This document shows, piece after piece, positions 21,455-60,001 of a stretch of DNA of 64,000 nucleotides. The stretch comes from Halorutilales archaeon Cl-col2-1. Lineage in GTDB: Archaea > Halobacteriota > Halobacteria > Halobacteriales > Afararchaeaceae. Under the pieces are notes generated by a model, which saw only the letters and a program-made list of their open reading frames with translations, was not told where the DNA came from and searched no databases. How positions within the stretch are numbered: position 1 is the first letter of the stretch; each line of letters begins with the position of its first letter. Both the position numbers and the translations under genes were made by a program. The stretch covers positions 1,871,031 through 1,935,030 of the forward strand of contig CP169074.1 of NCBI GenBank assembly GCA_041891055.1, given 5' to 3'.

Positions 21455-22612
21455 ATGTCAGTAGAACCCGAGACAGTCGAGTCGAAGCTCGAAGACAGCG
21501 AGCTTCCTCAGAGACTCCACGACAAAGTCAAGGACGCAGTCGGCGAGGAAGAAGTCACGGAGGCACAGATCGACGAGATCATAGACCAGGTCGAGGACAG
21601 GTACAGGTCGACACGTATAGACCCGCTCGAACCCGTGGGTACCGTGAGCGCTCAGTCTATAGGGGAACCCGGAACCCAAATGACTATGAACACCTTCCAT
21701 TACGCCGGAGTCGCCGAGATCGATGTCACACAGGGTCTCCCTCGTCTCATAGAGCTCGTCGACGCGAGGAAGGAGCCCGACACTCCGATGATGACGGTCT
21801 ACCTCAAGGACGACTGGGCGACCGACCGAGAGAAGGCGCGTGAGGTCGTCTGGGACATAGAGTCGACGACTATACTCTCGCTCGGCGACATCTCTACCAA
21901 CGTCGCCGAGATGGAGGTCTCTATAAACTTAGACGATGAGATGCTCGACGAGCGTCTCCTCTCAGTCGACGACATAGCAGACAAGATAGAGGCGGAGCTA
22001 GGTGTCGACGTCCGAGCGAACGGAACACGTGTCTCTTTCGGACCGTCGTCGCCGTCGTACCGCGAGCTTCTCCAGCTAATAGAACAGCTACGTGAGATCA
22101 CGTTCAAGGGAATCGAGGAGATCGATAGGGTCGTCATACGTAAGGAAGACGTCGGCGACAGGGAGGAGTACGTCCTCTACACCGAGGGAAGTGCACTCAA
22201 GGACGTCATACAGGTCGAGGGGGTCGACGAGACACGTACGAGAACCAACAACATACACGAGATGGCTGATGTCTTCGGCATAGAAGCTGCGAGGAACTCC
22301 CTCATAGACGAGATGACCTCCACGCTCGAGGAACAGGGTCTCGAAGTCGACATTAGACACGAGATGCTCGTCGCAGACATAATGACGATCACGGGAGAGA
22401 TACGTAGCATAGGAAGACACGGTATATCGGGTGCTAAGGAGAGCGTCCTGTCGCGTGCCGCCTTCGAGGTCACTGTCAACCAGCTTCTCGACGCCGCCGT
22501 TCACGGAGAGATCGACGACCTCGACGGAGTCATAGAGAACGTCATCGTCGGACAGCCCATAAAGCTCGGCACGGGAGACGTTGACCTCGTTATGGGACGT
22601 CCCGAGGACTAG
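21455..22612 (+). CDS. rpoA2: RNA polymerase subunit A'' (Rpo1C); stop codon lies inside an inserted double-hairpin element
   Basis: [41 protein letters not shown]. Confidence 0.97.
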
Positions 22613-22657
22613 TCCTCGTGTGCGCGTGAATCGGAAGATTCACGAATGTCCCGAGGA
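22599..22657 (+). mobile_element. 49-nt double-hairpin mini-element (copy E1) inserted at the rpoA2 3' end
   Basis: Hairpins CGAGGACT/AGTCCTCG (22603-22618) and CGTGAATC-GGAA-GATTCACG (22625-22644); direct repeat GTCCCGAGGA at 22599 and 22648. Confidence 0.75.
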
Positions 22658-22702
22658 TAGCACTAGCGACGACGAGTAGTCAGAGTAGAAAGACTCTCTT
22701 AC

Positions 22703-23353
22703 TTACTGTTTCGAGACCGTCCAGCTACCTGACGCCGACATTCCGGTGTTACTCTCGCCGCTCCAGTCGCCCTCTATCTTCGACGAGTCGTCGGAGACGT
22801 CGCCCGACATGTCCATGTTCATCGTCATGTATGACATCGCACGTCCCGAGGCGTCAGCATCGACCTCACCGTCCGACACAGAGCCTTCTATGGGTCCCGA
22901 GGCGTCACCTTCTATGCTTCCCGAGACCTCGTTGTTCGAGTAGTCGACTGTGACTGTCATGTCGCCGCCGACGTTGACGCCTCCCGTCGCTTCGCCGCTC
23001 CAGCTTCCCGAGTACTCTACGGTTTCGGTTCTTCCGGAACTCTCGTCTTTACTGCTACTGTCCGAACCCGATCCGGAGTCGGAGCCGGAGTCGGACGTCG
23101 TCTCAGTCTCCGACTTCTCCCCATCGGTCTGGTCTCCGGATGAGTCGGAGTCAGAGTCGGAGCTTGTCTTCGTGTCGGATTCGGATGACTCGGTCTTTGT
23201 CTCCGACTTGGAGTCCGAATCCTCGCTCGAACTCGACGAATCGTCGTCTTCCGAACTGCTGTCCTCCGAAGACTTAGCTTCCCCACCTGCGCAGCCGGCT
23301 ATTCCCCCCATTACAGAGGCACCCGTTAGTGCCAGAAACTGTCGTCTTTTCAT
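22703..23353 (-). CDS. Tat-exported lipoprotein with Ser/Asp-rich linker
   Basis: MKRRQFLALTG...IAGC (twin arginine plus lipobox); start at ATG 23353. Confidence 0.8.
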   Translation of the reverse strand: MKRRQFLALTGASVMGGIAGCAGGEAKSSEDSSSEDDDSSSSSEDSDSKSETKTESSESDTKTSSDSDSDSSGDQTDGEKSETETTSDSGSDSGSGSDSSSKDESSGRTETVEYSGSWSGEATGGVNVGGDMTVTVDYSNNEVSGSIEGDASGPIEGSVSDGEVDADASGRAMSYMTMNMDMSGDVSDDSSKIEGDWSGESNTGMSASGSWTVSKQ

Positions 23354-23603
23354 GTTTCCCCCAATCCCACAGCGTTTGAAATACTGTGATGCACTCACAA
23401 ATTCACCTCAGTTGCTATATAAGGGTTTCTAACGTTGTGTTAGTAATACAGACGTAGTACTATCGCCGTAACCCATTTTGCTACTACGAGAGTAATTGGA
23501 AATAGTCAACCGGCATACCTATATATCCTTATTTTAAATTAGCTATCCGTTGACCATGATGTACTGTTGTTACAATGGTGTGTAATCATGGGTGAAACAA
23601 AAC

Positions 23604-26600
23604 ATGAATAGGAAAAACAGAATCACTGCGATGTTTATAGCACTCGTAGTGGCTGTGTCGGTGACGGCGTTTGCAGCGCCCGCAGCGGCACAGAGCGTTG
23701 ATAATATTGATCCGACCCTCTCCGACGAGAATGGAGACGGTCTGGATGACAGGGTATCGATAGATGTGACGGTTTCGAATGTTGGTAGCGGAGTGACGAA
23801 TGTGACGCTTGGAGAGAGCAACTTTGACGTAGATGTATCGCCGACAGACACTGGACAGGACGATTTTGTGACCCTGTACGATACTGACGGTGACGGAACC
23901 GACGAGAAGGTTCAGTTCGTCAATATCACATCAGGAAGTGGTACCGACGCGACGTATACGGTAGTAGCCGACCTGTCGGGACAGTCCGACAGTGACACCG
24001 GTTCCGTTGATGTCGAACTCGGCGGAGGAACGGCTTCCTCTGCAACTTACACTGTAGTTGGTGGTTCTACACCCCCACCCTCGACTACGCCATCTGAAAT
24101 CCGTAAGACACAGGATTCGACAGATAACGCAAACGGCAACCCCGGCGGAACAATAGACCTCGCGAACAACCCGACAGTCTACCAGGGAGAAGATGACGTC
24201 CACTGGGTAAACAGTGCAGGTAGCGTACCCAACACGCTCACAGGAGACGAGAACTCAGGAGCCGAGGGACAGCAGCTTGACCTTGTAGGCACGATACCGC
24301 AGAACCAGGAGACTGGAGTCTACGGTGGCGGTAGGGTCACAGTCTCGACGCCCCGCATAGTGTCGATGGATGTTGACAACGAGCAGGGACAGGGAGTCGC
24401 AGGAAGTGAAGTCCAGGAAGGAACAAATCTCTACGTCAGCACGACGTGGAACTACGACTCCGCAGAGGACGTCGAGCTCAGCGTAATGGACTCGACGGGA
24501 ACAGAGGTTACCGGAGAAGCACTAGCTACGGGTCAGTCCGACACACGTAGTGGAGGAGCGGTTAATGATAACTTAGGTAACCGCTGGGAGATAAACACAG
24601 GAGATCTCGAAGCAGGAGAGTACACGATAGAAGTAGCCGGAGTCGACAGCCTTGACTTCGGAGACGCGACAAGGACAGCGACGATATCAATAACGTCGCA
24701 GGAAGATCCGTACCTAGAGCTTGAAGAAGACAGTGCGACACAGGGAGAGCGTGTCGACTACACTGTCAGAGCGTCTGACGCGGGTCTTTACCACGCAGTC
24801 GCGATAGACGAAGACGACCTACGTGACTCGGTCGACACGAGTGCTGGATCTAACGATCCCCTCGGAGTCTTCCGTAATGTTGGAGACACGCTGGATATCA
24901 GACGTGTGGACGGTTACGTAGTTGCGATGGTTGAGGTAGACGACTCCACAGGAGTAGCTACGGGAAGAATAGACACGCAGGATCTCGACGACACGTCGGT
25001 TGATGTCTACCTCTACGAGAGCACAGTCGCGGCAAACGACTACAGTACATCTAGCGCAGCGATAGACGCAGCGTACCACGATCTTACGGACGGTACCATA
25101 GACCTCGCTACTGACGACGAAGACGACAAGACGCTCAATGTCGAGGAAGCACAGGTAACTATAGACAACCCCGGAGCGACGTACGTGATAGGCTCCGAAG
25201 TTAACCTCAACGGAACAGCGTCGCAGGGACTTGACGAGGTCGCAGTCTACGTCAGAGACGAAGGCGACTGGCAACGTGTACTTACTGACACGGTTGAGTC
25301 CGACGGAACGTGGGAGGAAGAAGATGTCGCGCTGGATGCCCGTAGTGACATACTCAGCATTTCAGGAACCTACAGAATAGGAATCATAGACAAGCAGGAC
25401 ACTTCGAGAGCCGCAGTCACTGACGACGACGGCGAAACTGACTCAACTAACTTCCATAACGGCTACGCGAGGACACTCGACACGAGTGACTTCAACCAGG
25501 GAACATCCAGTCAGCGCTCCATACGTGTCCTCGAACCGAGCTTCCAGTATACTATACATCCAGTTGGAGGATCTGTTGCAGAAGAGGATGGTGAAATAAG
25601 AGTTACTGGTGAGGCAGTCGGTGCTGATGAAGTCGTAGTTGGGTTTGTTGGAGACAAGGGAGATGCTGCAGCTTATACGGTATCAGTAGATGACGACTAT
25701 ACCTTTGAGGAAGATCTTGAACTTACAACGACATCAGGTCATCCTGCCGATGAACCGATAAGACAAGGTACAGTAGTTGCTTTCGGTGTAGTTAACGGAA
25801 GAGACGACGAATTCGGTGATGGTACTGCTATGGGACGGCCTACAGAAACACCTCGGCAGTTTGCCGGTCTTGTTCCTGGATTTGATAACGATGTGAGTAG
25901 AGCTAGGGGTGGCCCCACCCGAACCTCTGGTCAGATAATAGAGCTACTACGTGCGGAATCAGTGGATGAAACCGGATCTGACGACCTCGGATATCCGTCG
26001 TCGTTCCGATACACAGATGGAAGCACGTCGATCAACGACGTAGTGCCTACGTCGCACTCCAACGTCACGGGAGTCGTCCCGATAGAGGTAGGAGAGACGA
26101 TGATGGTACGCGGAACGACGAACCTCCAGCCCGACGACAACACGATAAGTGTTGAAGCGGTCTCTGGATCCAGCATGAACGAGATGCCTGTCGAGACGAC
26201 GGACATGTGGAAGATGGAGAGCGGAGTCTGGTCTGTGACGATAGACACGACAGGACTTGAGCCGGGAACGTACGAGATCGAGTCTGACGACGGAGACTCG
26301 ACTGACACTGTCATGGTAGAGATAGTCGCGGAAGGAGAGCGCAACGACGCGATGCTCTCCGACAAGCCGACACTCGCAGACAGAGTCAGTCAGCTCCAGA
26401 GCAACGTAGAGGAGCTCCAGACCGAGAACGAGGAGCTCAGCACGCAGGTAGACGAGCTAGAGACGCAGAACGAGGAGCTCAACACGCAGCTTGAGGACGC
26501 GCAGTCGGAGAACGAGGAGCTCAGCACGCAGGTAGATGAGCTTGAGCAGGAGAACAGCGACCTCCAGAGCCAGCTTGAGGAAGCCGAGAGTGGCGGACAG

Positions 26601-26684
26601 GGACAGCCTGGATTCGGAGTCGCAGCGACTCTGATCGCCCTCATCGGCGCTGGTCTCATAGCTCTCAGAAGAAAGAACGAGTAG
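23604..26684 (+). CDS. csg: major cell-surface (S-layer) glycoprotein with PGF-CTERM anchor
   Basis: Sec signal peptide, TVYQGE, GRDDEFGDG, GTTNLQPDDNTISVE, GSDDL motifs typical of haloarchaeal Csg; several N-x-T sequons; GQPGFG-TM-RRK archaeosortase signal. Confidence 0.88.
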   Translation: MNRKNRITAMFIALVVAVSVTAFAAPAAAQSVDNIDPTLSDENGDGLDDRVSIDVTVSNVGSGVTNVTLGESNFDVDVSPTDTGQDDFVTLYDTDGDGTDEKVQFVNITSGSGTDATYTVVADLSGQSDSDTGSVDVELGGGTASSATYTVVGGSTPPPSTTPSEIRKTQDSTDNANGNPGGTIDLANNPTVYQGEDDVHWVNSAGSVPNTLTGDENSGAEGQQLDLVGTIPQNQETGVYGGGRVTVSTPRIVSMDVDNEQGQGVAGSEVQEGTNLYVSTTWNYDSAEDVELSVMDSTGTEVTGEALATGQSDTRSGGAVNDNLGNRWEINTGDLEAGEYTIEVAGVDSLDFGDATRTATISITSQEDPYLELEEDSATQGERVDYTVRASDAGLYHAVAIDEDDLRDSVDTSAGSNDPLGVFRNVGDTLDIRRVDGYVVAMVEVDDSTGVATGRIDTQDLDDTSVDVYLYESTVAANDYSTSSAAIDAAYHDLTDGTIDLATDDEDDKTLNVEEAQVTIDNPGATYVIGSEVNLNGTASQGLDEVAVYVRDEGDWQRVLTDTVESDGTWEEEDVALDARSDILSISGTYRIGIIDKQDTSRAAVTDDDGETDSTNFHNGYARTLDTSDFNQGTSSQRSIRVLEPSFQYTIHPVGGSVAEEDGEIRVTGEAVGADEVVVGFVGDKGDAAAYTVSVDDDYTFEEDLELTTTSGHPADEPIRQGTVVAFGVVNGRDDEFGDGTAMGRPTETPRQFAGLVPGFDNDVSRARGGPTRTSGQIIELLRAESVDETGSDDLGYPSSFRYTDGSTSINDVVPTSHSNVTGVVPIEVGETMMVRGTTNLQPDDNTISVEAVSGSSMNEMPVETTDMWKMESGVWSVTIDTTGLEPGTYEIESDDGDSTDTVMVEIVAEGERNDAMLSDKPTLADRVSQLQSNVEELQTENEELSTQVDELETQNEELNTQLEDAQSENEELSTQVDELEQENSDLQSQLEEAESGGQGQPGFGVAATLIALIGAGLIALRRKNE
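26423..26560 (+). repeat. heptad coiled-coil tandem repeat within csg
   Basis: AGAACGAGGAGCTCA[G/A]CACGCAG occurs 3 times (ENEELSTQVDELE-type units). Confidence 0.75.
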
Positions 26685-26713
26685 AGTAGCGGTACCGACG
26701 TAGCAGAAAAGAA

Positions 26714-26728
26714 GTCTTTTTTATTTTA
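26714..26728 (+). terminator. oligo-T terminator of csg
   Basis: TCTTTTTTATTTT about 30 nt after the stop. Confidence 0.5.
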
Positions 26729-28882
26729 ATCCCGCGCGGAGTCGAGAGTCTGTTTTACCTCTCTCTCGACGTTCTCCTGAGTCAGACTGTCGAGACTGAC
26801 GTAGTCGCCACCCGACTCACGTGCTATCTCCTCTCCGAGACCCGTCTGTACGTATCCCGACTCGCCGTCTAAGACGACGACCTTGACGTTCTCAGAGCCG
26901 AGGAGACGTGATAGTCTTCTGACTTCCTCGACCGGGTCGCCGTCTTCGTGCATAGAGACGTTCGCCTTTCCGTCAGTAACGAGAACTAGAACCGGAAGAA
27001 CTGCGTTGTCCGACTTCTTCGTCTCGTTCTGGATGACGTCATACGACTTCGAGAGGGCGTGACTCAGAGGTGTCCTGTCGCCCGTCGGAAGCTCCTTGAG
27101 ATGGCGTGCAGCTATCTCGACGCTGTTAGTCGGCGGAAGAAGCACCTCGGCGTCGTCGCCCTTGAAGCCTATGAAAGCGACCTTGTCACGGTTCCGGTAC
27201 GAGTCGTTGAGGAGCGACATGACTGCGCCCTTCGCCGTCTTCATACGTCCCTCGGCGTTCATGCTTCCAGACGCGTCGACTGCGAAGACGACGAGTGCCT
27301 GACGTCCTTCCTCACGTACCTTCTCGTGCAGGTCGTCCTTGCCCACTTCTGTCTTACCGCCTCTAGCCGCCGACCTGACTGTCGCGTCAACTGCTACGTC
27401 TATGTCTGTGTCGTCTGTGTCGCTCGCGCGTCTCGATCTGACGTATCTACCGGAGTCCGAGGTGGAAGAAGAGTGTTCGCCCGACTCGGTGCCGACTCGA
27501 TCGGCGGTGTCTACGTCTATCTCAGGCGAGTCGGCATCGCCTACGTCAGCTACCGTCTCTGGCTTCGATCCCGGCTTAGCTTCTTCGGTCGGCACTTCCT
27601 CGCCCTCATCACTGTCTTCTGTCCCATCCGTCTCTCTTTCACTGTCACCGTCACGGTCTCGGGCACCGGTGTCCTCCTCTCGAGTCTCCCTTTCTCGTTC
27701 TCTTGTGTCACTGTCTCCGTCTCTGGCGTCATCATCACCCTTACCACCTTCTTCGTCACCGTCGTCGTTTTCCGACCCTTCGTCGTCATCCATCTCATTG
27801 TCGGACTCCGGATCACCGTCTTCCTCCCCCTCTTCTCCTTCGTCCATCCCGTCTTCGCTTTCTTCCTCCCCTTCCTCGTCAAAGCTCTCGTCCATGACGT
27901 CGTCGAGATCACGTGAGTCGCCGAATGGGTCGGTCTTCATCCTGTGGGGAAGGGTCAGACGCGCCGCTTCTTTGACGTCTTCTTCCCTCACCTTCTCCCT
28001 TTGGTCTAAGGCTGCGATCGCACGTGCCGTCCTCGTAGTTATTATGTCGGCACGGTATCCGTCGACTCCCGCCTCGGTACAGAGTTCAGCAATCTTCTGT
28101 CTCAGAGACGCGTCGATACCCACGCCCTCGCCGTAGATCTCTCTTCCCTCCTCGATCTTCTCTCTCAGACGTTCCTCGTCTCCTCTGTACTCCTCTATGA
28201 CCGAGTCGGGGTCTCTCTCGAACTTCTCGGCTATCTCGACGACCTCGATACGTTCCTCTGGATCGGACGATCCGACGACATCGACCTGTAGACCGAACCT
28301 GTCGAGGAACTGGGGTCTCAGGCTCCCTTCCTCGGGATTCATGGTTCCGACGAGTATGAAGTCGGCGGGATGTTCGACCGAGACCCCCTCTCTCTCGACC
28401 TTGTTGACACCGCTCGCGGCGGCGTCGAGGAGAACGTCGACGAGATGGTCATCGAGGAGGTTGACCTCGTCTATGTAGAGAATCCCTCGGTTCGCGCGAG
28501 CGAGAATTCCGGGTTCGAGTGCGTTTACTCCCTCATTGAGTGCCTTCTCGACGTCTATCGATCCCACGACCCTGTCCTCTGTCGCCCCGAGAGGCAGATC
28601 GACGACGGGTGTGGGTATACTCTCGGTCTCAATCTCCTCAGGGTCTTTCTCCTTACAGTTCTCACACTGGAGATCGGGGTTCTCGGGATGACAGTTGAAC
28701 TCACATCCTCTGACGACCTCTATCTCGGGAAGGAGACGTCCTAGCCCCCGGACTGCGGTGCTCTTGGCAGTCCCTTTCTCACCTCTTATGAGGACTCCCT
28801 GAAGGGGAGCTACCGAGTTGAGAAGAAGTGCCCTCTTGAGGCTGTCCTGACCCACTACAGCCGGAAACGGAAAGACTCGCAT
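26726..28882 (-). CDS. chlID: ChlI/ChlD-fusion AAA+/VWA chelatase subunit (CobN partner)
   Basis: [37 protein letters not shown], acidic linker, VWA DASGSM / TDGKAN. Confidence 0.9.
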
Positions 28883-28980
28883 CTACCCGATATCGTCGTG
28901 TGTGTCTTATATCGGTTGGGATTCGACGAGGAATTAAAATTCGTTTGATTTAACACAACTGGGTTTGTACTCGTCTCCAT

Positions 28981-34185: not shown

Positions 34186-35536
34186 CACGTAGGTCGCTGA
34201 CGTTCGTCGAGGTCTCTCCCGTGACGACGAGACCGTCTCTCTCGTCGAAGAAGGTGTACGACGAGTTTTCTTCGAGTGCCACGGCGGCTTTCTCGGGGTC
34301 GTCTATGGTCTCGGTGCTACCTACTGCACCAGCCGCACCCCCGACGCCGTCGATACCGTCTGTGTCGACAGCCGCGATGCCTACTTCGACCTCGCCCTCA
34401 TCCTCATTCAACTCTCCGACGCCGCTCTCGTACAGACTCAGGAGACACGAAAGCACGAACTCCTGGTTGGGTCCGCCGTCTCCGTCCCCCGTGACTTCGA
34501 CTGTTGTCTCTCCGCCCGATATGACTGCACACGGCGGCTCGGCGGGATTACCCGTTCTTACGCACTCGCGGAGTACCGAGGCGTGGAACTCGCCGACGTC
34601 TCTCGACTCGCCCTCTGTGAGGGAAGAGAGGACAACGGTCTCGTAGCCGTGATTCTCGACATACTCCCTTGCGGCGTCGACCGCGTCGAAGGTGTTTGCG
34701 ACGACGACGTTGTCTACTTTCTCGAAACAGATGTCGCCGTAGCTCGGTGTTTCGTCCCATTCTCCCTCGACACCTTGGGTGAGACGTCGCACTACGGCGT
34801 CGGGACACTCGTCGTAAATCCCGTACTCTCTCAACGTCTTGACCGCGTCGGAGTAGGTCGACGCATCGGGAGACGTTGGACCGCTCGCTATGACGCTCGT
34901 GTCGTCACCCACGACATCCGAGACTATCACAGAGACGGTACGTGCGAGATCGAGTTCGCGCGCGAGCCTCCCTCCCTTTATCTCCGAGAGATGTTTGCGT
35001 ACCGAGTTGATCTCGTCTATCGACGCGCCGCTTTCAAGGAGTAGACGGTTCGTCCTCCTCAGGTCTTTAAGCTGTATCCCGTCAGCGGGTGCGGTCATGA
35101 GGGAGCTACCCCCTCCGGTGACCACGAAGACAACGAGGTCGTCCTCGTCGGCTTCTCTTGCCGTCTCAACGACCTTCGTCGCTCCCTCGACGCTCGTCTC
35201 GTCGGGGACGGGATGTGACCCCTCCACTGTTTCGACCCCTTCTATCCCCACGGGATCGGAGTCAACGACAACCCCTCCGTCTACGCCTCCGAGACGCTCG
35301 ACTATCTCACGCGCGAGTACGCTCGACCCCTTTCCGCCGCCTACCACGAGAACTCTCTCGAAGCGCGAGACCTCGAGGCTGAGATCTGATCCTTCGATAC
35401 ACATACTGTCACCGTCGAACTCCATCTTTTTTTCCACGACTTCCTTGGGACTTACGGCTTCTATCCCTGTCTCTACGGCTTCGACACAGACTTGTCCTGC
35501 GAACACCGTCTCGTACTCGCGCTCGAACTCCACCAT
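34166..35536 (-). CDS. glycerate 2-kinase (MOFRL family)
   Basis: GGGKG, HPVPD, TGGGSSL, RKHLSEIKGGRLA, SDVVGDD, GGETTV, GGPNQE, DTDGIDG, TNVSDL; start at ATG 35536. Confidence 0.9.
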   Translation of the reverse strand: MVEFEREYETVFAGQVCVEAVETGIEAVSPKEVVEKKMEFDGDSMCIEGSDLSLEVSRFERVLVVGGGKGSSVLAREIVERLGGVDGGVVVDSDPVGIEGVETVEGSHPVPDETSVEGATKVVETAREADEDDLVVFVVTGGGSSLMTAPADGIQLKDLRRTNRLLLESGASIDEINSVRKHLSEIKGGRLARELDLARTVSVIVSDVVGDDTSVIASGPTSPDASTYSDAVKTLREYGIYDECPDAVVRRLTQGVEGEWDETPSYGDICFEKVDNVVVANTFDAVDAAREYVENHGYETVVLSSLTEGESRDVGEFHASVLRECVRTGNPAEPPCAVISGGETTVEVTGDGDGGPNQEFVLSCLLSLYESGVGELNEDEGEVEVGIAAVDTDGIDGVGGAAGAVGSTETIDDPEKAAVALEENSSYTFFDERDGLVVTGETSTNVSDLRVMVIRP

Positions 35537-47445: not shown

Positions 47446-48402
47446 ATGATCCGTCTCCCCGAAGAGACAGTCTCCGAGAGGTTCATGCCCACCGCCCGCG
47501 CCATGATCGCGCGTGACCTCGACGACAGAGGCATGACCCAGGACGAAATAGCCCGCGAACTCGGAGTGAGTCAGGCTGCGGTAAGCAAGTACGTGAGTCG
47601 CGACGCAGAGCTCGATCCCCTCTTCAGCAGTAACCGGCGTATGGTCGAGACCGTCGAGGAGATAGGCGAGGGTCTTTACCACGACGAGATCGACGGCTAC
47701 GACGCAGTTTCACGTCTCCTGAGGCTTGTGCGCGAGTTCGAGAACAGGGGTCCGATCTGTGAGGCACACGAGGACGAGATGCCGTCTCTCAGAGGGAGGG
47801 GCTGTGACCTGTGTGTCTCCGAGCGTAACCCCGGCGAGAGACAGGCTGTCTCGAAGGTCAAAGCAGGCGTACGCGTACTCTCCGAGACTGACGGAGTCGC
47901 CGACTACATACCCAACGTCGGGACTAACGTCGTGACCGCAGTCCCGGGTGCCGACTCTGTCGACGAAGTCGTCGGAGTCCCCGGACGTGTCTACGAGGTC
48001 AGAGGAAACGTCAAGATACCTGCGAAGCCCGAACTCGGCGCGTCTGAGAACGTCTCCGAGGTCGTCCTTGCCGCTCATCAATCTTTGATTGATGTGCCTG
48101 TTAATCAAAGATTAACAGACGCCAACTCGGTCGAGCCGTCGGTACGCGGCGGACTCAACTTAGCGACGAGCGACGACTTCCTCGGTGCCGCTGAGAACCG
48201 AGGAATCGAGACGGTCGAGTTCGACCCAGCGTACGAAAACAGGAAAGACCGTCTCACACGGGTCTTCGAGGACTCGGGAGTTCCCGAGGTAGTCTACCAT
48301 ACCGGCGGGTTCGGAATAGAGCCCATAACCTACGTACTCGGAGAGACAGCCGTCGAGGCGGCGGAGCTCGCCTCGGAGATAATAAGCAGTACCGAGGATT
48401 AG
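47446..48402 (+). CDS. thiR: ThiR-type regulator: N-terminal HTH + ThiN (thiamine-phosphate synthase-like) domain, with a 16-aa in-frame insertion
   Basis: GMTQDEIARELGVSQAAVSKY, IPNVGTN, PGR, YHTGGFGIEPITY; divergent from thiC. Confidence 0.82.
   Translation: MIRLPEETVSERFMPTARAMIARDLDDRGMTQDEIARELGVSQAAVSKYVSRDAELDPLFSSNRRMVETVEEIGEGLYHDEIDGYDAVSRLLRLVREFENRGPICEAHEDEMPSLRGRGCDLCVSERNPGERQAVSKVKAGVRVLSETDGVADYIPNVGTNVVTAVPGADSVDEVVGVPGRVYEVRGNVKIPAKPELGASENVSEVVLAAHQSLIDVPVNQRLTDANSVEPSVRGGLNLATSDDFLGAAENRGIETVEFDPAYENRKDRLTRVFEDSGVPEVVYHTGGFGIEPITYVLGETAVEAAELASEIISSTED
48072..48122 (-). mobile_element. 48-nt double-hairpin mini-element (copy E2) inserted in frame in thiR
   Basis: CATCAATC-TTT-GATTGATG (48076-48094) and CTGTTAATC-AAA-GATTAACAG (48098-48118); CGC duplicated at 48072 and 48120; AT-rich patch inside a GC-rich gene. 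Confidence 0.78.
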
Positions 48403-52162: not shown

Positions 52163-52203
52163 TATAACCACAGACTTAGGCTCGTTGATGACGTATCCGC
52201 GTT

Positions 52204-53031: not shown

Positions 53032-53036
53032 CCCGG

Positions 53037-53909
53037 TCAGATCCACTCGCGCGCTTTCATACGTGCGGTGAGGGCGACCGCCTTTCTGAGTCCGCGGCGT
53101 ATTAGACCCGACGAGTTGGGGACTCCCTCGCCGTCTTCGTATTCGAGACCCCTGATTACGACGACCGGGGTGCGTTCATCCGACTGACCAAAGAGGAGCG
53201 CCGACCCCGCGGTTATCTCGTCGGCGATCAGATCGACTCCTCCTATCTTCGGCTCTCCGTAGAGATCCTCACGTCCGAATTTGCTGTCGACAGCCTCAAT
53301 TCCGGAACATCCCGTGGCTAAGTCGATGGTTCCGGGACCTACTATCTCAGAGTCCGCGAGAACTACAGCGATATCTTTTCCTGTCTCCTCTTCGATACCC
53401 TTACGTATCCTCCGAGCGCTCTCATCGGGATCTTCAGGGAGGAGCGTCATCCTCCCTTCAGGCGAGTTCGACCAGTCTACCCCGGCGTTCGTACATAGAC
53501 GTCCTCCGCGGTCAGTCACGAGAGCCGACGGCATCTCTTCTAAAGCACTCTCGGCTTTCTCGGGGTCTGAGGCGTGTTCCATTATGAGATCCTCGCCTAT
53601 CTCGGCGACGGGGATAGCACCTATCACGTCGCTCTCGTCGTATATAAGAGAGACCTCCCGCGGATCTAGACCCGTTACTTCGGCGACCCTCTCGTCACGC
53701 TCCGTAACTTCTACCTCGTCGGCGTCTACGAGACGTCCCTCCGCCGTAGAGACGACCTTCGTGGTGATAGCGAGGACATCGCCGTCCTCAAGCGGATACT
53801 CGTCATCCGTCGCCTCGGATATACGTTCGACGAGGTCGTCTCCCTCCTCAATTACTCCTATATCGAGTCCTTGGAAGCTGAGTCTTTCCGTCTTCTGTTT
53901 AGGTGACAC
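53037..53909 (-). CDS. cofE: coenzyme F420:L-glutamate ligase-like protein
   Basis: GDDL, KVVSTAEG, NAGVDWSN, LLPEDPDESARRIR, ADEI, PVVVIRG. Confidence 0.75.
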   Translation of the reverse strand: MSPKQKTERLSFQGLDIGVIEEGDDLVERISEATDDEYPLEDGDVLAITTKVVSTAEGRLVDADEVEVTERDERVAEVTGLDPREVSLIYDESDVIGAIPVAEIGEDLIMEHASDPEKAESALEEMPSALVTDRGGRLCTNAGVDWSNSPEGRMTLLPEDPDESARRIRKGIEEETGKDIAVVLADSEIVGPGTIDLATGCSGIEAVDSKFGREDLYGEPKIGGVDLIADEITAGSALLFGQSDERTPVVVIRGLEYEDGEGVPNSSGLIRRGLRKAVALTARMKAREWI

Positions 53910-53966
53910 ATACTATGGTACTCGGTGCCAGACTTTATACTTATCCGAGTCATATATGCGACACAG

Positions 53967-54095
53967 ATGACAGAGTACGAGTGCAAACTGTGCAGTGTCA
54001 CATTCGACACGAGAAAGGAGCTACAGGATCATATGAGAGAGGCGCACGGACTCGAAGACGACGAGATAGAGGAAGAGATCGAAGTACACGACTGA
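53967..54095 (+). CDS. 42-aa C2H2 zinc-finger microprotein (below the ORF-track cutoff)
   Basis: MTEYECKLCSVTFDTRKELQDHMREAHGLEDDEIEEEIEVHD*; TTTATA upstream at about 53933. Confidence 0.8.
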   Translation: MTEYECKLCSVTFDTRKELQDHMREAHGLEDDEIEEEIEVHD

Positions 54096-54113
54096 GTACG
54101 CTACACTACGCTA

Positions 54114-55388
54114 CTAAGGGAAGAGACCTCTGACCTCGTGTGCCTCCACGACACGTCTAAGACCCACGACGTATGCCGCTGTACGTAGGTCATCGACGTC
54201 CTCCGACTCGTAGACTTCGACGATGTCGTCGAAACTCCTGAGTAGCTTCTTTTCGAGCTCTCTGTTGACTTTCTCCTCGTCCCACGAGTACTGCTGGAAG
54301 TTCTGTACCCACTCGAAGTACGACACGATCACTCCCCCGGCGTTCGTGATTACGTCGGGAACGACGTCGATGTCGCGCTCCCTCAGGACGGCGCCGGCTT
54401 CGAGAGTCGTGGGACCGTTTGCGGCTTCGACTACGGTGTCGGCACGCACCTCGTCGGCTATATCCGATGTTATCGCGTTTTCGAGGGCTGCGGGGACTAT
54501 GGCGTCGACGTCGAGTGTGAGGAGGTCTCTGTTATCTATACTGTCTACGCCGTTTTTCTCACACAGGTAGTCGACGAGTTCGGCGTCATCGGCTCTCTTG
54601 AAGTCGGCTACGTCCTCCGTGTCGAGACCGTCGGGATCGTAGATTCCCCCGCTTGAGTCACTCACCGCCACGATCTCGGCTCCCATTCCGTCGAGTATCT
54701 CGGCGGCTACACTCCCGACGTTTCCGAATCCCTGTATCGCAATCTCAGCACCTTCGACCTCTTTCCCGAGGTACTCGAAGGCGTGTTCGAGTATTATCGA
54801 GACCCCCCTTCCCGTCGCCTTCTTCCGCCCGACTGTTCCACCGACTGAGACGGGCTTACCCGTTACGACCTCCGAGACTGTGTAGCCCTCGTACGCCGAG
54901 TAGGTGTCCATTATCCAAGCCATAGTCTGTTCGTCGGTGTTGACGTCGGGCGCGGGTACGTCCTTCTCGGGACCTATTATGTTCCTTATCGACTCGGTGT
55001 AACGCCTCGTGAGTCTCTCGATCTCGTCGTCGGACATTTCCTTCGGGTTACAGACTACACCACCCTTCGCGCCTCCGTACGGCAGATCGACGACTGCGGT
55101 CTTCCACGTCATCCAGCCTGCGAGGGCTATGACCTCCTCGTCGCTCACCCTCGGATGGTAACGCACACCTCCCTTGTAGGGTCCTCTCGCTCCGTTGTAC
55201 TGGCATCGGTAACCCGTGAAGTTCTCGACCCTCCCGTTGTCCATCTTAACGGGGAGTGTGACAGAGTGAAGACGCTCGGGGTGTTCAAGACGTCTGTATA
55301 TGTTCTCGTCGACGTCTATGCTGTCGTACGCCCTGTCGAGCTGTTTCCGCATCGTGACGTACGGGTTGGTGGTGTCTTGGTTTGGCAT
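54114..55388 (-). CDS. gdhA: glutamate dehydrogenase
   Basis: GPYKGGVRY, MTWK, GGAKGG, DVPAPD, ATGRG, QGFGNVG, EAANGP, NAGGVIVSYFEW. Confidence 0.96.
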   Translation of the reverse strand: MPNQDTTNPYVTMRKQLDRAYDSIDVDENIYRRLEHPERLHSVTLPVKMDNGRVENFTGYRCQYNGARGPYKGGVRYHPRVSDEEVIALAGWMTWKTAVVDLPYGGAKGGVVCNPKEMSDDEIERLTRRYTESIRNIIGPEKDVPAPDVNTDEQTMAWIMDTYSAYEGYTVSEVVTGKPVSVGGTVGRKKATGRGVSIILEHAFEYLGKEVEGAEIAIQGFGNVGSVAAEILDGMGAEIVAVSDSSGGIYDPDGLDTEDVADFKRADDAELVDYLCEKNGVDSIDNRDLLTLDVDAIVPAALENAITSDIADEVRADTVVEAANGPTTLEAGAVLRERDIDVVPDVITNAGGVIVSYFEWVQNFQQYSWDEEKVNRELEKKLLRSFDDIVEVYESEDVDDLRTAAYVVGLRRVVEAHEVRGLFP

Positions 55389-55444
55389 CGAACACCACAG
55401 ACCACACCACGCGGAGATATTAAGCTTTGGGCGATCCCTATTCC

Positions 55445-55888
55445 CTATGACAGTCTCTCTATTATGTCGAGGGTCGATTCGAGGTTGTCGAGAATACGTC
55501 CCAGACGGTCGAGATCCTCCTCGTCCTCCGCCTCGTCTGCGAGACGCCTTGCTACCTTTGAGAGTGAGACGACTACCTCGCGGTTCTGGTTCCCTGTCTG
55601 TCCTTGTTCCCGTCTCTGATTCTGGTTCTGACTCGGGCTCTGTCCCCTCGACGTCGTATCTCCCTGGCTTGTACTGTTCTCTCCTTCCATCTCTCCGGCG
55701 TCTCTCGTGGATCTATCTCCCGTCGGAGTCTCTCCGAGTATACGTCTCGCCTCGTCGGGATCACACGCCGCACAGAAGACGTCGCCGTCGTGTCTGAAAA
55801 GGGGATTCCCGCAGTCTGGACACTCGTCGCCGAGCATCGTCACGCCACGCAGGAGAAGGTCGCTCATCAGGTCGGAGTCGTCTGCCAT
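55445..55888 (-). CDS. Sjogren/scleroderma autoantigen 1 (Auto_anti-p27) family Zn-ribbon protein
   Basis: MSDLLLRGVTMLGDECPDCGNPLFRHDGDVFCAAC. Confidence 0.85.
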   Translation of the reverse strand: MADDSDLMSDLLLRGVTMLGDECPDCGNPLFRHDGDVFCAACDPDEARRILGETPTGDRSTRDAGEMEGENSTSQGDTTSRGQSPSQNQNQRREQGQTGNQNREVVVSLSKVARRLADEAEDEEDLDRLGRILDNLESTLDIIERLS

Positions 55889-55942
55889 GTCCCGACTATT
55901 CGTCGGACGACAAAAAGAGATGTGGTCGTCGACCTCCTATTA

Positions 55943-56101
55943 TCAGAAGCTCTTATCTCCGATACGTTCCCTTCTCTGTTCCATGTAGCAGTCCATACAC
56001 ATCTCGCGCGTCTCGGAGTAGTGCTCGAAACAGACGGGACGGCTACACTCGTCACAGACGTGGTCAGCCTCTATACGTCCGCATTTGTGACAGTCTGCCA
56101 T
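55943..56101 (-). CDS. 52-aa multi-Cys zinc-finger microprotein (below the ORF-track cutoff)
   Basis: MADCHKCGRIEADHVCDECSRPVCFEHYSETREMCMDCYMEQRRERIGDKSF*. Confidence 0.78.
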   Translation of the reverse strand: MADCHKCGRIEADHVCDECSRPVCFEHYSETREMCMDCYMEQRRERIGDKSF

Positions 56102-56141
56102 GCTTGGACGTGTCTACGCAGCCCGGACTTTTGAAGCTTTC

Positions 56142-56498
56142 TCAGACGAGATCAGCTTCGGGGTCGCCTTTAGTTTTGTAGAGTTCGTCCCAGGCGGTTA
56201 TGCCGCCTTGAAGGTTGTAGATCTCGTCGAAGTCGTCGAGGTTGGAGAGGAAGTCGCAGGCGTCCTGGCTTCTCGATCCGCTGTGGCAGTAGACGAGGAG
56301 TTTGTCGCCTTCTATCTCGTCGACTCTGTCGGGGAGTATTTCGACTGGTATCAGATGGTCGACGCCGGGTACTCTCTTCCACTCGTACTCGTCGGGGTTT
56401 CTGACGTCGAGTACGAAGATGTCGTCGTCCTCAACCATCTCCTTTGCGTCCTCGGGCGTTACGTCGTTGAAGTTCTGATCCTGTGTTATCTCTTTCAT
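56142..56498 (-). CDS. rhodanese-like sulfurtransferase
   Basis: LDVRNPDEY, YCHSGSRS, NLQGGITAW. Confidence 0.9.
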   Translation of the reverse strand: MKEITQDQNFNDVTPEDAKEMVEDDDIFVLDVRNPDEYEWKRVPGVDHLIPVEILPDRVDEIEGDKLLVYCHSGSRSQDACDFLSNLDDFDEIYNLQGGITAWDELYKTKGDPEADLV

Positions 56499-56555
56499 AT
56501 TACAACTGTAGTACCACAGCTATATAAGTCTTACCACCACTGGGAAATGGTGGTA

Positions 56556-56723
56556 CTACTCTCCACCTCCCAAAGCCTCAGTCCCGCGTTTCCTGATCGA
56601 TCGCTTGACTCCCGTCCACTCCGTCACGCGTGAGACCCTCTTGGTGAGGCACTCTCCGACTGTCGATAGCTCTGTTCCGCCGAGACCTGTCGAGTAGTTC
56701 TCGTGGTATCTCTGGTTTATCAT
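56556..56723 (-). CDS. possible 55-aa small protein
   Basis: MINQRYHENYSTGLGGTELSTVGECLTKRVSRVTEWTGVKRSIRKRGTEALGGGE*; GGAGG upstream, host-like codons, followed by a TACCACCA...TGGTGGTA hairpin. Confidence 0.4.
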   Translation of the reverse strand: MINQRYHENYSTGLGGTELSTVGECLTKRVSRVTEWTGVKRSIRKRGTEALGGGE

Positions 56724-56966
56724 TTCTGTCTTCCTCCATCCATATCCACATCGTGTGACTGTATTAAATCTCGGATTATCTCCTAAATATTTTCTCTATA
56801 TGCCTCTAAATAGACTATATATTTGAGGAAGAAGTCCTAAAGATGTATAATAACGGAAATATCCCTCATGCTGCTACAAATTAGTGGAGGAGTCAGGTTG
56901 GCACAGTCTCTTACGGTAAAAAAGAAAAGAGGGTTCTCACGAACTCGGGAGAAGACGGTGACTACG

Positions 56967-57266
56967 TTATACTCTAACCATCTGAGCGTGGGCGACGCCG
57001 TCGATGTAGATCACGTTCTCGTCGTCTATGACGCCTGCCTCTATTCCCGCTTCGACACTCTCCTCCCCGACTAGGTTGGCTATCGACGCCTCTCTCAGAT
57101 CAACGACGGTCTCGTCCTTCTCTCGCTCCTCGCCGCCGTAGAAGTCCTCGTTGACTTCTATACGCACCTCTGTTTCCGAGTCCTCGACTGTCTGACCCAG
57201 GAGACTCACATCACACGCCGCGACCATCGTCCCCTGGTCGGTCTCGTACTTACACAGACTTATCAT
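56967..57266 (-). CDS. DUF424 family protein
   Basis: VAACD, FYGGE, ANLVG, AIEAG-like motif, IDGVAHAQ. Confidence 0.85.
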   Translation of the reverse strand: MISLCKYETDQGTMVAACDVSLLGQTVEDSETEVRIEVNEDFYGGEEREKDETVVDLREASIANLVGEESVEAGIEAGVIDDENVIYIDGVAHAQMVRV

Positions 57267-57952
57267 CCCCTCATCGCCTCTGTCATCTTCTCGTCCTTCG
57301 CTTCCTCGGCAACCTCACGCGCCTCTTCCGCCTCTTCGTACCTCTCTAGACCTTCGAGTGCGCGTGCCTTCTCCTCGTATACGTAGGGTGCTCTCAGACC
57401 TAGCTTCACGGCATTGTTGATCGAGTTGAGTGCGTCCTGGTGTCTTCCCTCCTCGTTGAGGAAGAACGCCCTATTGTACCACGCCTCGGGCTGTCTCTCG
57501 TCTATCTCAAGTGCCTTCTCTATGTGTTCGAGGTGTTCGCCTCCGACACCCATCTCGTACTCGGCGTAGGCGAGGTTGGTGAGAGCCTTCGCTGCCTCCT
57601 CGGTACTGTCGTCTATACGTACAGCTTCGGTGTACGCGGCTGTCGCCTCGTCGAACTCCTCCATCTCGGCGTGTGCGAAGCCCTTGTTGACCCAAGCGTC
57701 CTGGTTCTCGTCGTCGAAACGCAGAGCGCGTTCGAAGGTCTCGACCGCCTGTTCGTAACGGTTGATCTCTATGTAACTCAGACCCACGTCGACTAGACCC
57801 TCCACGTCGACGTCCTCGGGCTCTGTGGTCTCGACTAGCTCGTCGAGGACGTGCGAGTCGGCGGGTGTTATGCCGTCGATCTCTATGTTGAGATCGTCTC
57901 CTTCAAGGTCAAACTTATCGTCGTAGATATCGTCGTCAAAACCGTCTTCCAT
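57263..57952 (-). CDS. tetratricopeptide repeat protein
   Basis: AWVNKG, ALTNLAYA, AWYNRA TPR motifs; conserved pairing with DUF424. Confidence 0.85.
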   Translation of the reverse strand: MEDGFDDDIYDDKFDLEGDDLNIEIDGITPADSHVLDELVETTEPEDVDVEGLVDVGLSYIEINRYEQAVETFERALRFDDENQDAWVNKGFAHAEMEEFDEATAAYTEAVRIDDSTEEAAKALTNLAYAEYEMGVGGEHLEHIEKALEIDERQPEAWYNRAFFLNEEGRHQDALNSINNAVKLGLRAPYVYEEKARALEGLERYEEAEEAREVAEEAKDEKMTEAMRG

Positions 57953-58055
57953 ATCCTCTTTTAGTCGTGAAGAGAGATAAATCCGACGTTCACCCTTCCT
58001 TCACTATCAATATCCGAAAACCCTTAATTCACAGTCCACACCTTCCTATACAGAC

Positions 58056-59102
58056 ATGACAGACTCAGACACCATGGAAGCCGTACTCTTCCACGAACAC
58101 GGAGACCTAGACGTCTTGTCGCACGAGGAAGTTCCCGTCCCTGAGATAGACGAAGACGAGGTGAGGATAGAGGTGCGTGCAACCGCACTCAATCACCTCG
58201 ACCTACATATAAGACGAGGAATACCGACCGTCGACCTCGACCTCCCCCATATCCCTGGAAGTGACATAGCCGGAGTCGTCGACGAGGTCGGAGACGGCGT
58301 GACTGACTGGGAGGAGGGTGACAGAGTAGTCCTCAACCCGTCGCTGTCGTGTGGAGAGTGTGAGTTCTGCATACAGGGCGAACAGAGTATGTGTGAGGAG
58401 TTCGAGATTATCGGCGAACACGTCGACGGGGGCTACGCCGAGTACGCCAAGGCACCCGCGATGAATCTTATCGAGATCCCCGACGAGTACTCGTTCGTAG
58501 ACGCCGCCGCCGCGGGTCTCGTCTACATGACTGCGTGGAGAATGGTGAGCACACGCGCCGAACTCCAGTCGGGTGAAGAGGTTCTTGTCACAGGCGCGAG
58601 TGGAGGTGTCGGAAGTGCCGCGGTACAGATCGCAGACATGATCGACGCGAAGGTCTATGCCACGGCGGGAAGCGAAGAGAAAGCGGAGTTCGTCGAGGAG
58701 ATGGGAGCCGACGTCAGCATAAACTACAAGGAGGAGGATGTCGGCGATCGCATACGTGAGGAAACAGACAACGGCGTAGACGTAGTTCTCGACTCTGTCG
58801 GCGGAGAGATGTGGATGGATCTCCTCAAAGGGATGAAGAACGGCGCGACCCTCGTGACGTGTGGAGCGACTGCGGGCTGGAACCCCGACGCCGGTCTCAA
58901 CTACATCTTCTTCAACCAGCTTGAGGTCAAGGGATCGACTATGTCGACTCTCAAGGAGGCGCGCGAGATAATGGATCTCGTCTTCAACAGTCCCGACCTA
59001 GAGCCCGTCGTCGATCAGGTCATGCCCCTCGAAGACGCTGAGGAGGCACAGAAGACACTCGAAGAAGGCGACCATCTCGGCAAGATAGTTCTTCAGCCGT
59101 AA
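58056..59102 (+). CDS. zinc-binding alcohol dehydrogenase / quinone oxidoreductase (MDR family)
   Basis: LNHLD, PGSD, CGECEFC...C, GASGGVG, GKIVL. Confidence 0.9.
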   Translation: MTDSDTMEAVLFHEHGDLDVLSHEEVPVPEIDEDEVRIEVRATALNHLDLHIRRGIPTVDLDLPHIPGSDIAGVVDEVGDGVTDWEEGDRVVLNPSLSCGECEFCIQGEQSMCEEFEIIGEHVDGGYAEYAKAPAMNLIEIPDEYSFVDAAAAGLVYMTAWRMVSTRAELQSGEEVLVTGASGGVGSAAVQIADMIDAKVYATAGSEEKAEFVEEMGADVSINYKEEDVGDRIREETDNGVDVVLDSVGGEMWMDLLKGMKNGATLVTCGATAGWNPDAGLNYIFFNQLEVKGSTMSTLKEAREIMDLVFNSPDLEPVVDQVMPLEDAEEAQKTLEEGDHLGKIVLQP

Positions 59103-59103
59103 A

Positions 59104-59270
59104 GTGAACTACCCCTGCACTCGCCACCTTCAGCAGTGGTTCGAGAGAGCGAAGCTCTCTTGCCATCACGAAAGACCTTCGGTCTTTTGAACGTCCCGAG
59201 ATCTGCGATCTCGTGGGCTCGTGAATCTAAGATTCACGAACGACTCCTTGAGGAAGGGGACTTAGCGCCT
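59104..59270. mobile_element. IS200/IS605-type end remnant carrying two nested double-hairpin elements (E3, E4)
   Basis: GTGAACTACCCC...CTCCTTGAGGAAGGGG frame, related to 62464, interrupted by four perfect 17-21 nt hairpins at 59144, 59171, 59197 and 59219. Confidence 0.7.
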
Positions 59271-59295
59271 GTTCTCAGTTAAATCTACCTTTGTA

Positions 59296-59325
59296 AGCTA
59301 CCACGCCCTAAAGGGCGTGGCATTC
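59296..59325 (-). mobile_element. IS200/IS605 right-end subterminal hairpin
   Basis: CCACGCCC-TAAA-GGGCGTGG (59301-59320) immediately 3' of tnpB. Confidence 0.65.
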
Positions 59326-59329
59326 ACGG

Positions 59330-59384
59330 AATCTCGTGAATCGTAGATTCACGATGTACGCGAACCGATGGTTCGCTTGAAATC
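59330..59384 (+). mobile_element. 51-nt double-hairpin mini-element (copy E5)
   Basis: TCGTGAATC-GTA-GATTCACGA, linker TGTAC, GCGAACC-GAT-GGTTCGC; AATC duplicated at 59330 and 59381. Confidence 0.7.
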
Positions 59385-59833
59385 GGAGCCGTTCCTGTTC
59401 TCCGGATGGGTGAACCCGCACTTAGAGCAACGCTGTGACATATGCTCCGGGTTCTCTTGGGTAACTCGTATCCCACGCTCCTCGGCTTTGTACTCTACGT
59501 ACTGATAGAAACGGCGATACGCCCAGTCATGCCAACGGTTTAGGTCGTCGCGTATCCGTTCTAAGTCTTCATAGCTATAACGCTACAGCCATTCTCGACA
59601 GCTTCCTCAACTATCTCCTTAGCTACTCTATGTAGATAGTTCTTGAAACGTCCAGTTTCTTTCTTACCGACTCGTTGGATGTTTTCGTGGGCATAACGAG
59701 AACCATGCTCCTGCAACGACTTGCGGCGTTTCTTGTACTCTCTCCGCCAATGGTTTAGGTACTCTATGCTCCAGTATGCTCCGGTTGAGGTGACGGCGAG
59801 ACTGCCTCGTGTGTTCAAATCTACACCGAGAAC

Positions 59834-59886
59834 CGTTCAGAAATCTTTGATTTCTGAGCCATCGAAGCTCCCGCTTCGAGACGTTC
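59834..59886 (-). mobile_element. 48-nt double-hairpin mini-element (copy E6) that introduces a stop in tnpB
   Basis: TCAGAAATC-TTT-GATTTCTGA and TCGAAGC-TCCC-GCTTCGA; CGTTC duplicated at 59834 and 59882. Confidence 0.78.
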
Positions 59887-59946
59887 CGTTCTCGGTTTCT
59901 TCCGACTCTATCTCCTTCTTGACGCCTATATGGAGGTAGTATTCGC

Positions 59947-60001
59947 CGTCTCCAGAACTATTGGTTCTGGATGGCTCGTCAGACGAAGTCTGACGAACGT
60001 C
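59947..60001 (+). mobile_element. 51-nt double-hairpin mini-element (copy E7) inserted in frame in tnpB
   Basis: TCCAGAAC-TATTG-GTTCTGGA, linker TGGC, TCGTCAGAC-GAA-GTCTGACGA; CGTC duplicated at 59947 and 59998. Confidence 0.78.

Follow-up and report, generated by a model that had tools for sequence, protein, structure and literature searches.

The SMR-A repeats of Haloquadratum walsbyi (HqIRS42, HqIRS43 and HqIRS55) are too short to encode a protein, numerous, and present as strain-specific insertions of whole elements (Dyall-Smith et al. 2011, PMC3119063). In the excerpts of that paper used here they measure about 110 bp, bear conspicuous inverted terminal repeats, cause no target duplication and favour the near-terminal palindromes of IS605-type transposons and of PATEs, and it was proposed in 2011 that they disable insertion sequence (IS) elements (PMC3119063). 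The same excerpts describe PATEs as IS605-linked elements with palindromes near their ends and no transposase gene, of which a 52-bp terminal-only form exists (PMC3119063). Here we report a family of double-hairpin mini-elements, hereafter units, in the genome of Halorutilales archaeon Cl-col2-1 (G000), seven of which (E1 to E7) lie in a 64,000-nt stretch of contig CP169074.1 (C1), positions 1871031-1935030, referred to as the window. The evidence supports a non-autonomous, structure-defined family linked to IS605-type elements, and the units probably behave as mobile DNA that is gained and lost whole.

SMR-A and the PATEs of Haloquadratum are the closest known kind, and it is the published descriptions, as excerpted, that set the units apart from them, not sequence. 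The behaviour of the units matches that of SMR-A, since they too split IS605-type end palindromes and fill a recurrent right-end site, whereas size, hairpin-pair build, flanking CG and in-frame genic insertions do not match: the units are 45-54 nt long, contain two internal hairpins, have a short repeat, mostly CG, on their flanks and no clear inverted terminal repeats beyond CGT/ACG, and lie in frame in housekeeping genes, a location that the SMR-A excerpts do not mention. Some four-hairpin modules of G000 measure 97-105 nt. With PATEs the units share the IS605 link, the lack of a transposase gene and a length of about 50 nt; PATE palindromes resemble those of the parent IS, whereas the hairpins in G000 differ from the resident IS ends and interrupt these. 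An original prediction, made from the letters of the window alone, had raised novelty as a point to be checked. No description of such units was found in the literature beyond PMC3119063, the other papers being represented by listing entry and opening of the abstract, and the SMR-A and PATE elements described there set a limit to how far the units are new. Plasmid PL47 of H. walsbyi has 21 hairpins against about 14 expected, none adjacent and none in arrays, a count that says nothing on the appearance of SMR-A.

REP, BIME and REPIN sequences consist of a short hairpin with a conserved adjacent tetranucleotide, occur as pairs of opposite polarity and as arrays whose linkers alternate, and are the proposed single-strand substrates of RAYT transposases (Y1, HUH); REPs are conserved in sequence and extragenic. 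The units share the hairpin-pair polarity and the arrays with alternating linkers, whereas the sole Y1 gene of G000 is an IS200 equivalog and not a RAYT. Rickettsia palindromic elements (RPE) are bacterial palindromic mini-elements of 100-150 bp that lie in frame in protein genes, and we know of no link between them and IS200/IS605. They resemble the units in adding a peptide in frame, while being longer and unrelated in sequence. IS608 and ISDra2 are recognised by their hairpins, which are sub-terminal and imperfect and accompanied by spacer and guide segments, and they move by a single-strand mechanism, inserting 3' of a fixed 4-5-nt target without a flanking repeat. The likeness here lies in a proposed recognition by hairpin, a possible single-strand mechanism and a possible strand-dependent orientation; the units differ in having CG on both sides and variable repeats, and in lacking a fixed target and the spacer/guide layout.

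The genome is haloarchaeal, 2.06 Mb in size, with 55% G+C and 99.5% completeness. Perfect hairpins were defined by a stem of at least 7 bp and a loop of 2-6 nt, and adjacent pairs by a gap of 0-12 nt; the counts cover perfect hairpins and exact motifs, leaving out imperfect copies, and three dinucleotide shuffles of C1 served as background. C1 contains 1141 perfect hairpins against 815-894 in the shuffles, an excess concentrated in 3-nt loops (454 against 181-209). It also contains 169 adjacent hairpin pairs against 2-7, so that the expectation of further copies above a shuffled background held. After merging, 311 perfect hairpins in 117 clusters were obtained genome-wide (84 clusters of two hairpins, 11 of three, 13 of four, 2 of five, 4 of six, and one each of seven, eight and nine), with an even hairpin number in 102 clusters and an odd one in 15. 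From this size distribution we read the arrays, which reach nine hairpins, as stacked pairs and the pair as the unit; units are stacked head to tail. The seven copies first proposed are real, and as a copy number seven was far too low, there being at least 117 clusters. Single-strand DNA folding of E1, E2 and E4-E7 gave two hairpins each, with z-scores of -3.5 to -6.0, and none of 200 shuffles was equally stable. The double-hairpin structures are not due to chance.

The commonest unit reads CG^TC(C)-H1-(T)GGC-H2-A-CG^ (caret, unit boundary), with H1 of 7-9 bp, H2 of 9 bp with the apex AATC-nnn-GATT, and a total of 45-54 nt. This scaffold is common to 54 fully perfect pairs. The usual H2 is TCGNNAATC-nnn-GATTNNCGA, H1 is far more variable, and the two are usually unlike. 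The end triplets CGT and ACG tend to pair in the single-strand folds, and no clear terminal inverted repeat beyond them was seen in the units compared. A MITE derived from a DDE transposon would be marked by terminal inverted repeats like those of a resident transposon and by a target duplication of constant length. Within arrays, GACGT(T) linkers alternate with (T)GCCA linkers. Other subtypes include TYAA-H-GTAC(n)-H-GAT, represented by E5, a type with a 10-nt linker ending in CATCACG, represented by E3, GTGT-H-TACGTA-H-ACAC, and the four-hairpin modules of 97-105 nt. The claim of one architecture shared by all seven elements therefore applies to the canonical scaffold and does not extend to E5 and E3.

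Mobility was assessed against the sole same-genus genome compared (G001), of which 1.44 Mb was used and which has about 92.5% identity to G000 over long matches. Among the 117 G000 clusters, 76 had no syntenic match, 19 had weak flanks and 22 had good flanks. Of these 22, 12 exceed their G001 counterpart by at least 40 nt, 6 are shorter than it and 4 have the same length in both genomes. In the reverse comparison, which began from 82 clusters of G001, good flanks were found for 11; 6 of them are longer in G001, 3 are longer in G000 and 2 do not differ. The length differences are whole units (45, 48, 49 or 51 nt) or multiples of them (92-105 nt), and the empty sites are clean. IS paralogues within G000 differ at one site, ...gagCG^AAcc..., where they have no unit, a single unit or two units. 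There are 60 unit pairs within 3 mismatches of each other, with unrelated flanks in five and one pair identical, and in one of the five a G000-specific unit in a phosphodiesterase gene has the same stems as a unit 410 kb away and differs from it in the loops alone. The proposal of a non-autonomous mobile family is supported by these precise empty sites in the congener and in paralogues and by near-identical units at unrelated loci; the empty alleles sought in relatives exist in G001, at the E6 site and at other clusters, and in distant orthologues of the gene that carries E2.

The hairpins could instead be immobile functional structures, such as terminators, parts of a guide-RNA scaffold or protein-binding sites, conserved in place. 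E3- and E5-type pairs do stand at fixed positions in IS 3' regions across genera, and the hairpins are thermodynamically strong. Yet units are precisely present or absent in conserved protein genes, in-frame insertions are missing from all distant orthologues, identical units recur at unrelated loci, and empty-site alleles of the E5 type are seen outside IS elements. No Rfam family matched in the interval 58900-60400 of the window. For canonical units this explanation is contradicted, and as a whole we regard it as highly improbable.

In the window all seven elements were located at, or within a few bases of, the places first proposed for them. The features, in window coordinates, are as follows.

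21455-22612, + strand: RNA polymerase subunit A'' gene (RNA_pol_Rpb1_5, Pfam), the last codons of which are the H1 5' arm of E1
22598-22657, + strand: E1, TCC-H1(22603-22618)-TGTGCG-H2(22625-22644)-AATG, hairpin span 22603-22644, at the 3' end of rpoA''
47446-48402, + strand: HTH-ThiN gene (Pfam), carrier of E2
48074-48121, - strand: E2, 48 nt (16 codons) in frame in the ThiN gene, hairpins 48076-48094 and 48098-48118, CG on each side
59104-59115, - strand: IS1341-type right-end terminus, reverse complement of ...ggggtagttcac, directly past the stop codon of the upstream dehydrogenase; the same terminus occurs in several tnpB copies
59144-59187, - strand: E3, hairpin pair with the long linker TGCCATCACG
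59192-59242, + strand: E4, canonical CG^TCC-H1-TGGGC-H2-A-CG, hairpin span 59197-59239, at a recurrent insertion site in the IS right-end region
59245-59264, - strand: left-end motif ...gtccccttcctcaaggag, which recurs upstream of the tnpB copy at C1 1350955
59301-59320, no strand assigned: GC-rich palindrome like those at the true ends of resident IS200/IS605 elements
59334-59376, - strand: E5, subtype TYAA-H-GTAC(n)-H-GAT, directly past the tnpB stop codon
59380-60226, - strand: tnpB remnant with at least three broken open frames and a partial zinc-ribbon match
59835-59882, - strand: E6, canonical unit of 48 nt in frame in tnpB, hairpin span 59837-59879
59949-59999, + strand: E7, canonical unit of 51 nt in frame in tnpB, hairpin span 59951-59996

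An 11-nt direct repeat (22598-22608 and 22647-22657, one mismatch) brackets E1, whose H1 loop contains the stop codon of rpoA''; G001 matches this locus through the H1 5' arm and the stop codon and then continues without the remainder. E2 is absent from all six orthologues examined from other families and present in G001. Metagenome runs X1, X2 and X3 were compared at contig level, and a contig of X1 covers E2. The composite at 59103-60230 is wholly missing from the G001 locus, and the matches of G001 and of X2 and X3 contigs end at 59103. Within it, E3-like sequence occurs in 10 plasmid records of Natrialbaceae and other haloarchaea (blastn, 76-93% identity), and in one of the two that were inspected an E3-like pair adjoins the same kind of IS terminus; E3 is accordingly a module native to the right end or else an old unit with a wide distribution. 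The left-end motif at 59245-59264 and the terminus at 59104-59115 together form a PATE-like end-only piece, in which the left-end motif is joined to the right-end terminus. Elsewhere the E5 subtype is found as G000-specific insertions of 49 nt and 51 nt. E6 was inserted at a CG in the loop of a resident CGAGAAC...GTTCTCG hairpin; this site is empty in a close G001 tnpB copy and in one X3 contig, and occupied by E6 in two intact G000 tnpB paralogues. The E7 site is empty in a G000 paralogue at C1 219 kb, while a G001 copy keeps the unit, and X1 and X2 contigs that skip the 51 nt of E7 exist. Paralogous tnpB copies, or an organism resembling G001, may be the source of the contigs without E6 or E7, which for this reason were not scored as population alleles. 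Over 59069-59515 the summed contig depth in four metagenome runs was several to tens of times that of neighbouring bins, as expected if many genomes in those samples contain repeats of this IS-end and hairpin sequence.

Open frames of 150 codons or more, with no fewer than 30 codons to either side of the cluster, enclose 22 of the 117 clusters. An open frame alone is not proof of a gene. Eight frames were checked by Pfam, which recognised seven: a tyrosine integrase, an M24 peptidase, a family-B DNA polymerase with inteins, a type I phosphodiesterase, an AdoMet synthetase, a Hel308-type helicase and, as a control, an IS200 transposase domain. The eighth, of 229 codons, had no Pfam match. In AdoMet synthetase an 18-residue insertion lies between invariant motifs; it is present in G001 and absent from six of six distant orthologues. 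All eight coding insertions measured are multiples of three (48, 54, 48, 51, 51, 99, 48 and 51 nt), as are three of the seven non-coding ones (49, 97, 92, 105, 105, 48 and 49 nt). The family-B DNA polymerase gene (C1:641649-646688) gave intein and LAGLIDADG matches and has in its intein part a 51-nt E5-type unit that is absent from G001. Host proteins thereby gain 15-33 residues (AdoMet synthetase, ThiN, M24 peptidase, integrase and the intein part of DNA polymerase B), and these in-frame insertions make the units an archaeal counterpart of the RPE. Removal of the element had been said to restore a sensible frame in four coding cases. This applies to E2, E6 and E7 (48, 48 and 51 nt, all in frame) and fails for E1, where the G001 gene ends at the same ...GRPED stop without the element.

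Compensation in the stems was examined at sites picked by the core AATC-N3-GATT alone, with no further pairing demanded and with the 3' flanks dealt out among sites as controls. At least four further consecutive pairs beyond the core were present at 124 of 194 sites against 5-16 in the controls, and the two positions nearest the core use all four bases. The stem variation is genuinely compensated, and the claim that stems vary freely and still pair is upheld. Loops are mostly RRA or its complement TYY (GAA 24, TTC 18, AAA 17, TTT 15, TCT 13, AGA 12, GGA 12, TCC 11). With the units oriented alike, TYY prevails in H1 loops (24 against 7) and RRA in H2 loops (28 against 11), and H1 and H2 are therefore opposite in polarity. 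The H2 loop of E7 is TTC in the window copy and flipped to GAA in the close G001 copy (L085); E6 differs from its two G000 paralogues in H2 by two compensated pairs and a changed loop, H1 being identical; and some otherwise identical units differ in loops only. This pattern agrees with mutation, after which one arm is corrected against the other, combined with exchange between units. Stem diversity would then arise in place, by mutation, arm-to-arm correction through template switching within the hairpin, and exchange between units, and the proposed correction would be why stems stay perfect while loops flip. Arm-to-arm correction is known for quasi-palindromes and for minute inversions flanked by hairpins, and such in-place correction would make selection on each base pair unnecessary.

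In three genomes of one genus in another family (G020, G035 and G050, family f4), the H2-type stem is constant (TCGAAAATC) and the loops vary (TTC, GAA, TTA, TCC, GGA), which suggests that loops may evolve faster than stems.

In most events CG stands on both sides of the unit, and a single CG, or TG/CA, is found in the empty allele. The remaining flanking repeats consist of TA, AT, no base or a single T, TCCG, TATCT, GGGGACGT and stretches of 10-13 nt that start with CGTCCCGAG. The predicted short direct repeat at each copy, mostly containing CG, is thus accurate as to CG in most events, while repeat length ranges from 0-1 to 13 nt. A duplication, a common recombination core or a preference for certain targets could each account for these repeats. 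The repeat of E1, and that of the 99-nt integrase insertion, takes in the H1 5' arm, and the arm already exists in the empty allele or G001. As a rule, construction of H1 from target sequence was rejected, as E2 and two insertions from the G001 comparison, one of them an array of two units at C1 1615263-1615360 that G001 lacks, have no H1 arm in the empty site. Units are often located within or next to hairpins. They interrupt, at a CG, the GC-rich palindromes of both the left and the right ends of IS200/IS605 elements, in G000 and also in G011, which belongs to another family.

An origin with no dedicated transposase would have units inserted by templating, through replication template switching or gene conversion via microhomology with the arrays, and arrays growing by slippage. 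The flanking repeats are variable, up to 13 nt, and extend into the unit end in three cases (E1, the 99-nt integrase insertion and one further case from the G001 comparison); the pre-existing H1 arm of E1 and of the integrase insertion and one deletion between hairpin cores agree with such an origin as well. Loop flips with compensated stems are a known signature of template switching in quasi-palindromes. Most events, however, are whole units with the same CG bounds and a 2-nt repeat, too short for recombination and too regular for random switches, and insertions occur at many unrelated genic sites. We consider templated insertion improbable as the source of the family.

The link with IS605 that had been proposed is confirmed, in that units are found in the palindromic ends, the 3' non-coding regions and the tnpB genes of IS200/IS605 elements; the genome has 33 TnpB zinc-ribbon matches. 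It bears on a further explanation, by which the units are terminal-only PATEs, that is, IS200/IS605 ends fused after deletion of the core and moved by TnpA like a minimal IS. Such an origin would suit a length of about 50 nt with two hairpins, the strong association with tnpB elements, the end-only piece at 59104-59264 and the E5- and E3-type pairs at fixed places in several IS 3' regions, and the excerpted report has 52-bp terminal-only PATEs with strain-specific insertions (PMC3119063). The resident IS ends are nevertheless GC-rich palindromes with other termini, which the units split at CG; no full-length IS was seen with these hairpins as its sole end structures; and core deletion leaves flanking direct repeats and tandem stacking unexplained. 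On balance we think it unlikely that the units are fused IS ends.

Mobilisation by an HUH (Y1) enzyme had been suggested, together with co-occurrence of TnpA or RAYT genes. G000 has one open IS200-type Y1 tnpA (C1:979038-979397), divergent to a tnpB; a six-hairpin array lies immediately downstream of it, enclosed by the loop of a GC-rich palindrome. Its profile scores are 151 bits as an IS200 equivalog and 25.8 bits for RAYT, where the cut-off is 80. The suggestion stands as far as the presence of one tnpA goes. It does not stand for RAYT, and it is weakened by hairpins unlike IS ends, by non-canonical flanking repeats and by a genome (G027, 91% complete) with units and no tnpA match. This single TnpA, acting in trans on single-stranded DNA, is our leading candidate for the enzyme, held tentatively and with somewhat less than even confidence.

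The same six-hairpin array, with identical flanks, is present at three places (C1:533469-533608, C1:979447-979586 and C2:51551-51690), one of which tnpA adjoins. The longest array seen has 15 adjacent perfect hairpins (G001:C13, about 34527-34907; L068 14527-14907), and the matching place in G000 has four.

If the units are mobile, a unit, once excised or copied, would enter at a CG, frequently ACG^T, sites similar to its own junction or within hairpins being preferred, and it would be recognised by hairpin geometry and the 3-5-nt linkers, not by stem sequence. It is possible, if rather doubtful as a complete account, that the units form a distinct class of structure-recognised mini-transposon that integrates at CG in or beside DNA hairpins, with stems free to drift and H1 partly built from the target in some events. 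Such a class would be a hyperparasite of IS200/IS605 elements in their ends and guide-RNA region, with a chemistry that relies on the Y1 TnpA used in a non-canonical way or on an unknown enzyme.

Several observations weigh against the units being mobile and moved by TnpA. Insertion, as distinct from deletion, is proven by outgroups for E2 and AdoMet synthetase only, and one length difference between G000 and G001 resembles a deletion between hairpin cores. The flanking repeats are mixed in length (none or 1, 2 as CG, TA or AT, then 4, 5, 8 and 10-13 nt), which fits a fixed target duplication poorly and the no-duplication mode of IS200/IS605 not at all. No transposase is tied to the units, their hairpins are inserted inside the GC-rich end palindromes of resident IS200/IS605 elements and are unlike them, and the unit has no room for the spacer of about 19 nt that lies in IS608 between the left cleavage site and the hairpin. 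The units of G027, found with no tnpA match, count here as well. The orientation data are divided: in favour of a strand-specific mechanism, the loops are polar and 36 strictly defined canonical loci form 9 runs (permutation p = 0.0007), whereas under a looser H2-only definition 45 loci form 20 runs (p = 0.19), and no switch occurs at the sole orc1/cdc6 gene of C1 (1.519 Mb) or at the cumulative GC-skew maximum (1.51 Mb), both of which lie within one block.

The orientation blocks switch near 44-78, 407-466, 840-915 and 1019-1080 kb on C1. Unit orientation was compared with replication through GC skew and orc1/cdc6; the blocks under the strict definition are real, yet they mismatch a single-origin map.

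The double-core pattern was present in 32 of 201 sampled genomes of the order, with 42 sites in G000, 40 in G001, 31 in G093 and 1-5 in the others. The GC-H2-ACG pattern was found 62 times in G000, 55 times in G001, 2-13 times in six genomes of family f11 and 3-7 times in three genomes of one f4 genus; elsewhere, among the matches listed (79 more lay beyond the listing), it gave single matches, mostly unpaired. An exact-pattern scan of genome contigs for two AATC-N3-GATT cores returned chance matches in unrelated bacteria and, among the matches listed, three haloarchaeal records. Judged from the pattern counts within the order, the hairpin type is old and widespread and has been amplified in a few lineages with small genomes. 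In G093, from another family and 88% complete, the 31 double-core sites include a pair with the linker TACGTA that is present in four identical copies.

A family defined by structure in this way escapes similarity-based repeat finders and annotation, and a large part of the difference in length between two closely related species is due to its units. The 3' region of a TnpB element gives rise to the guide RNA, and units that lie there are natural tests of guide-RNA tolerance; they are equally natural tests of the proposed disabling of IS elements by small repeats. Their integration chemistry fits no textbook mode.

One further hairpin pair, with the same right flank, occurs twice at a distance of 18 kb (C1:1671526-1671570 and 1689653-1689697), and one of the copies abuts a tRNA 3' end. 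The first copy (1671526-1671570) is absent from G001 and flanked by a TGGACC repeat. The two look like attachment sites of an integrated element and not like members of the mini-element family.

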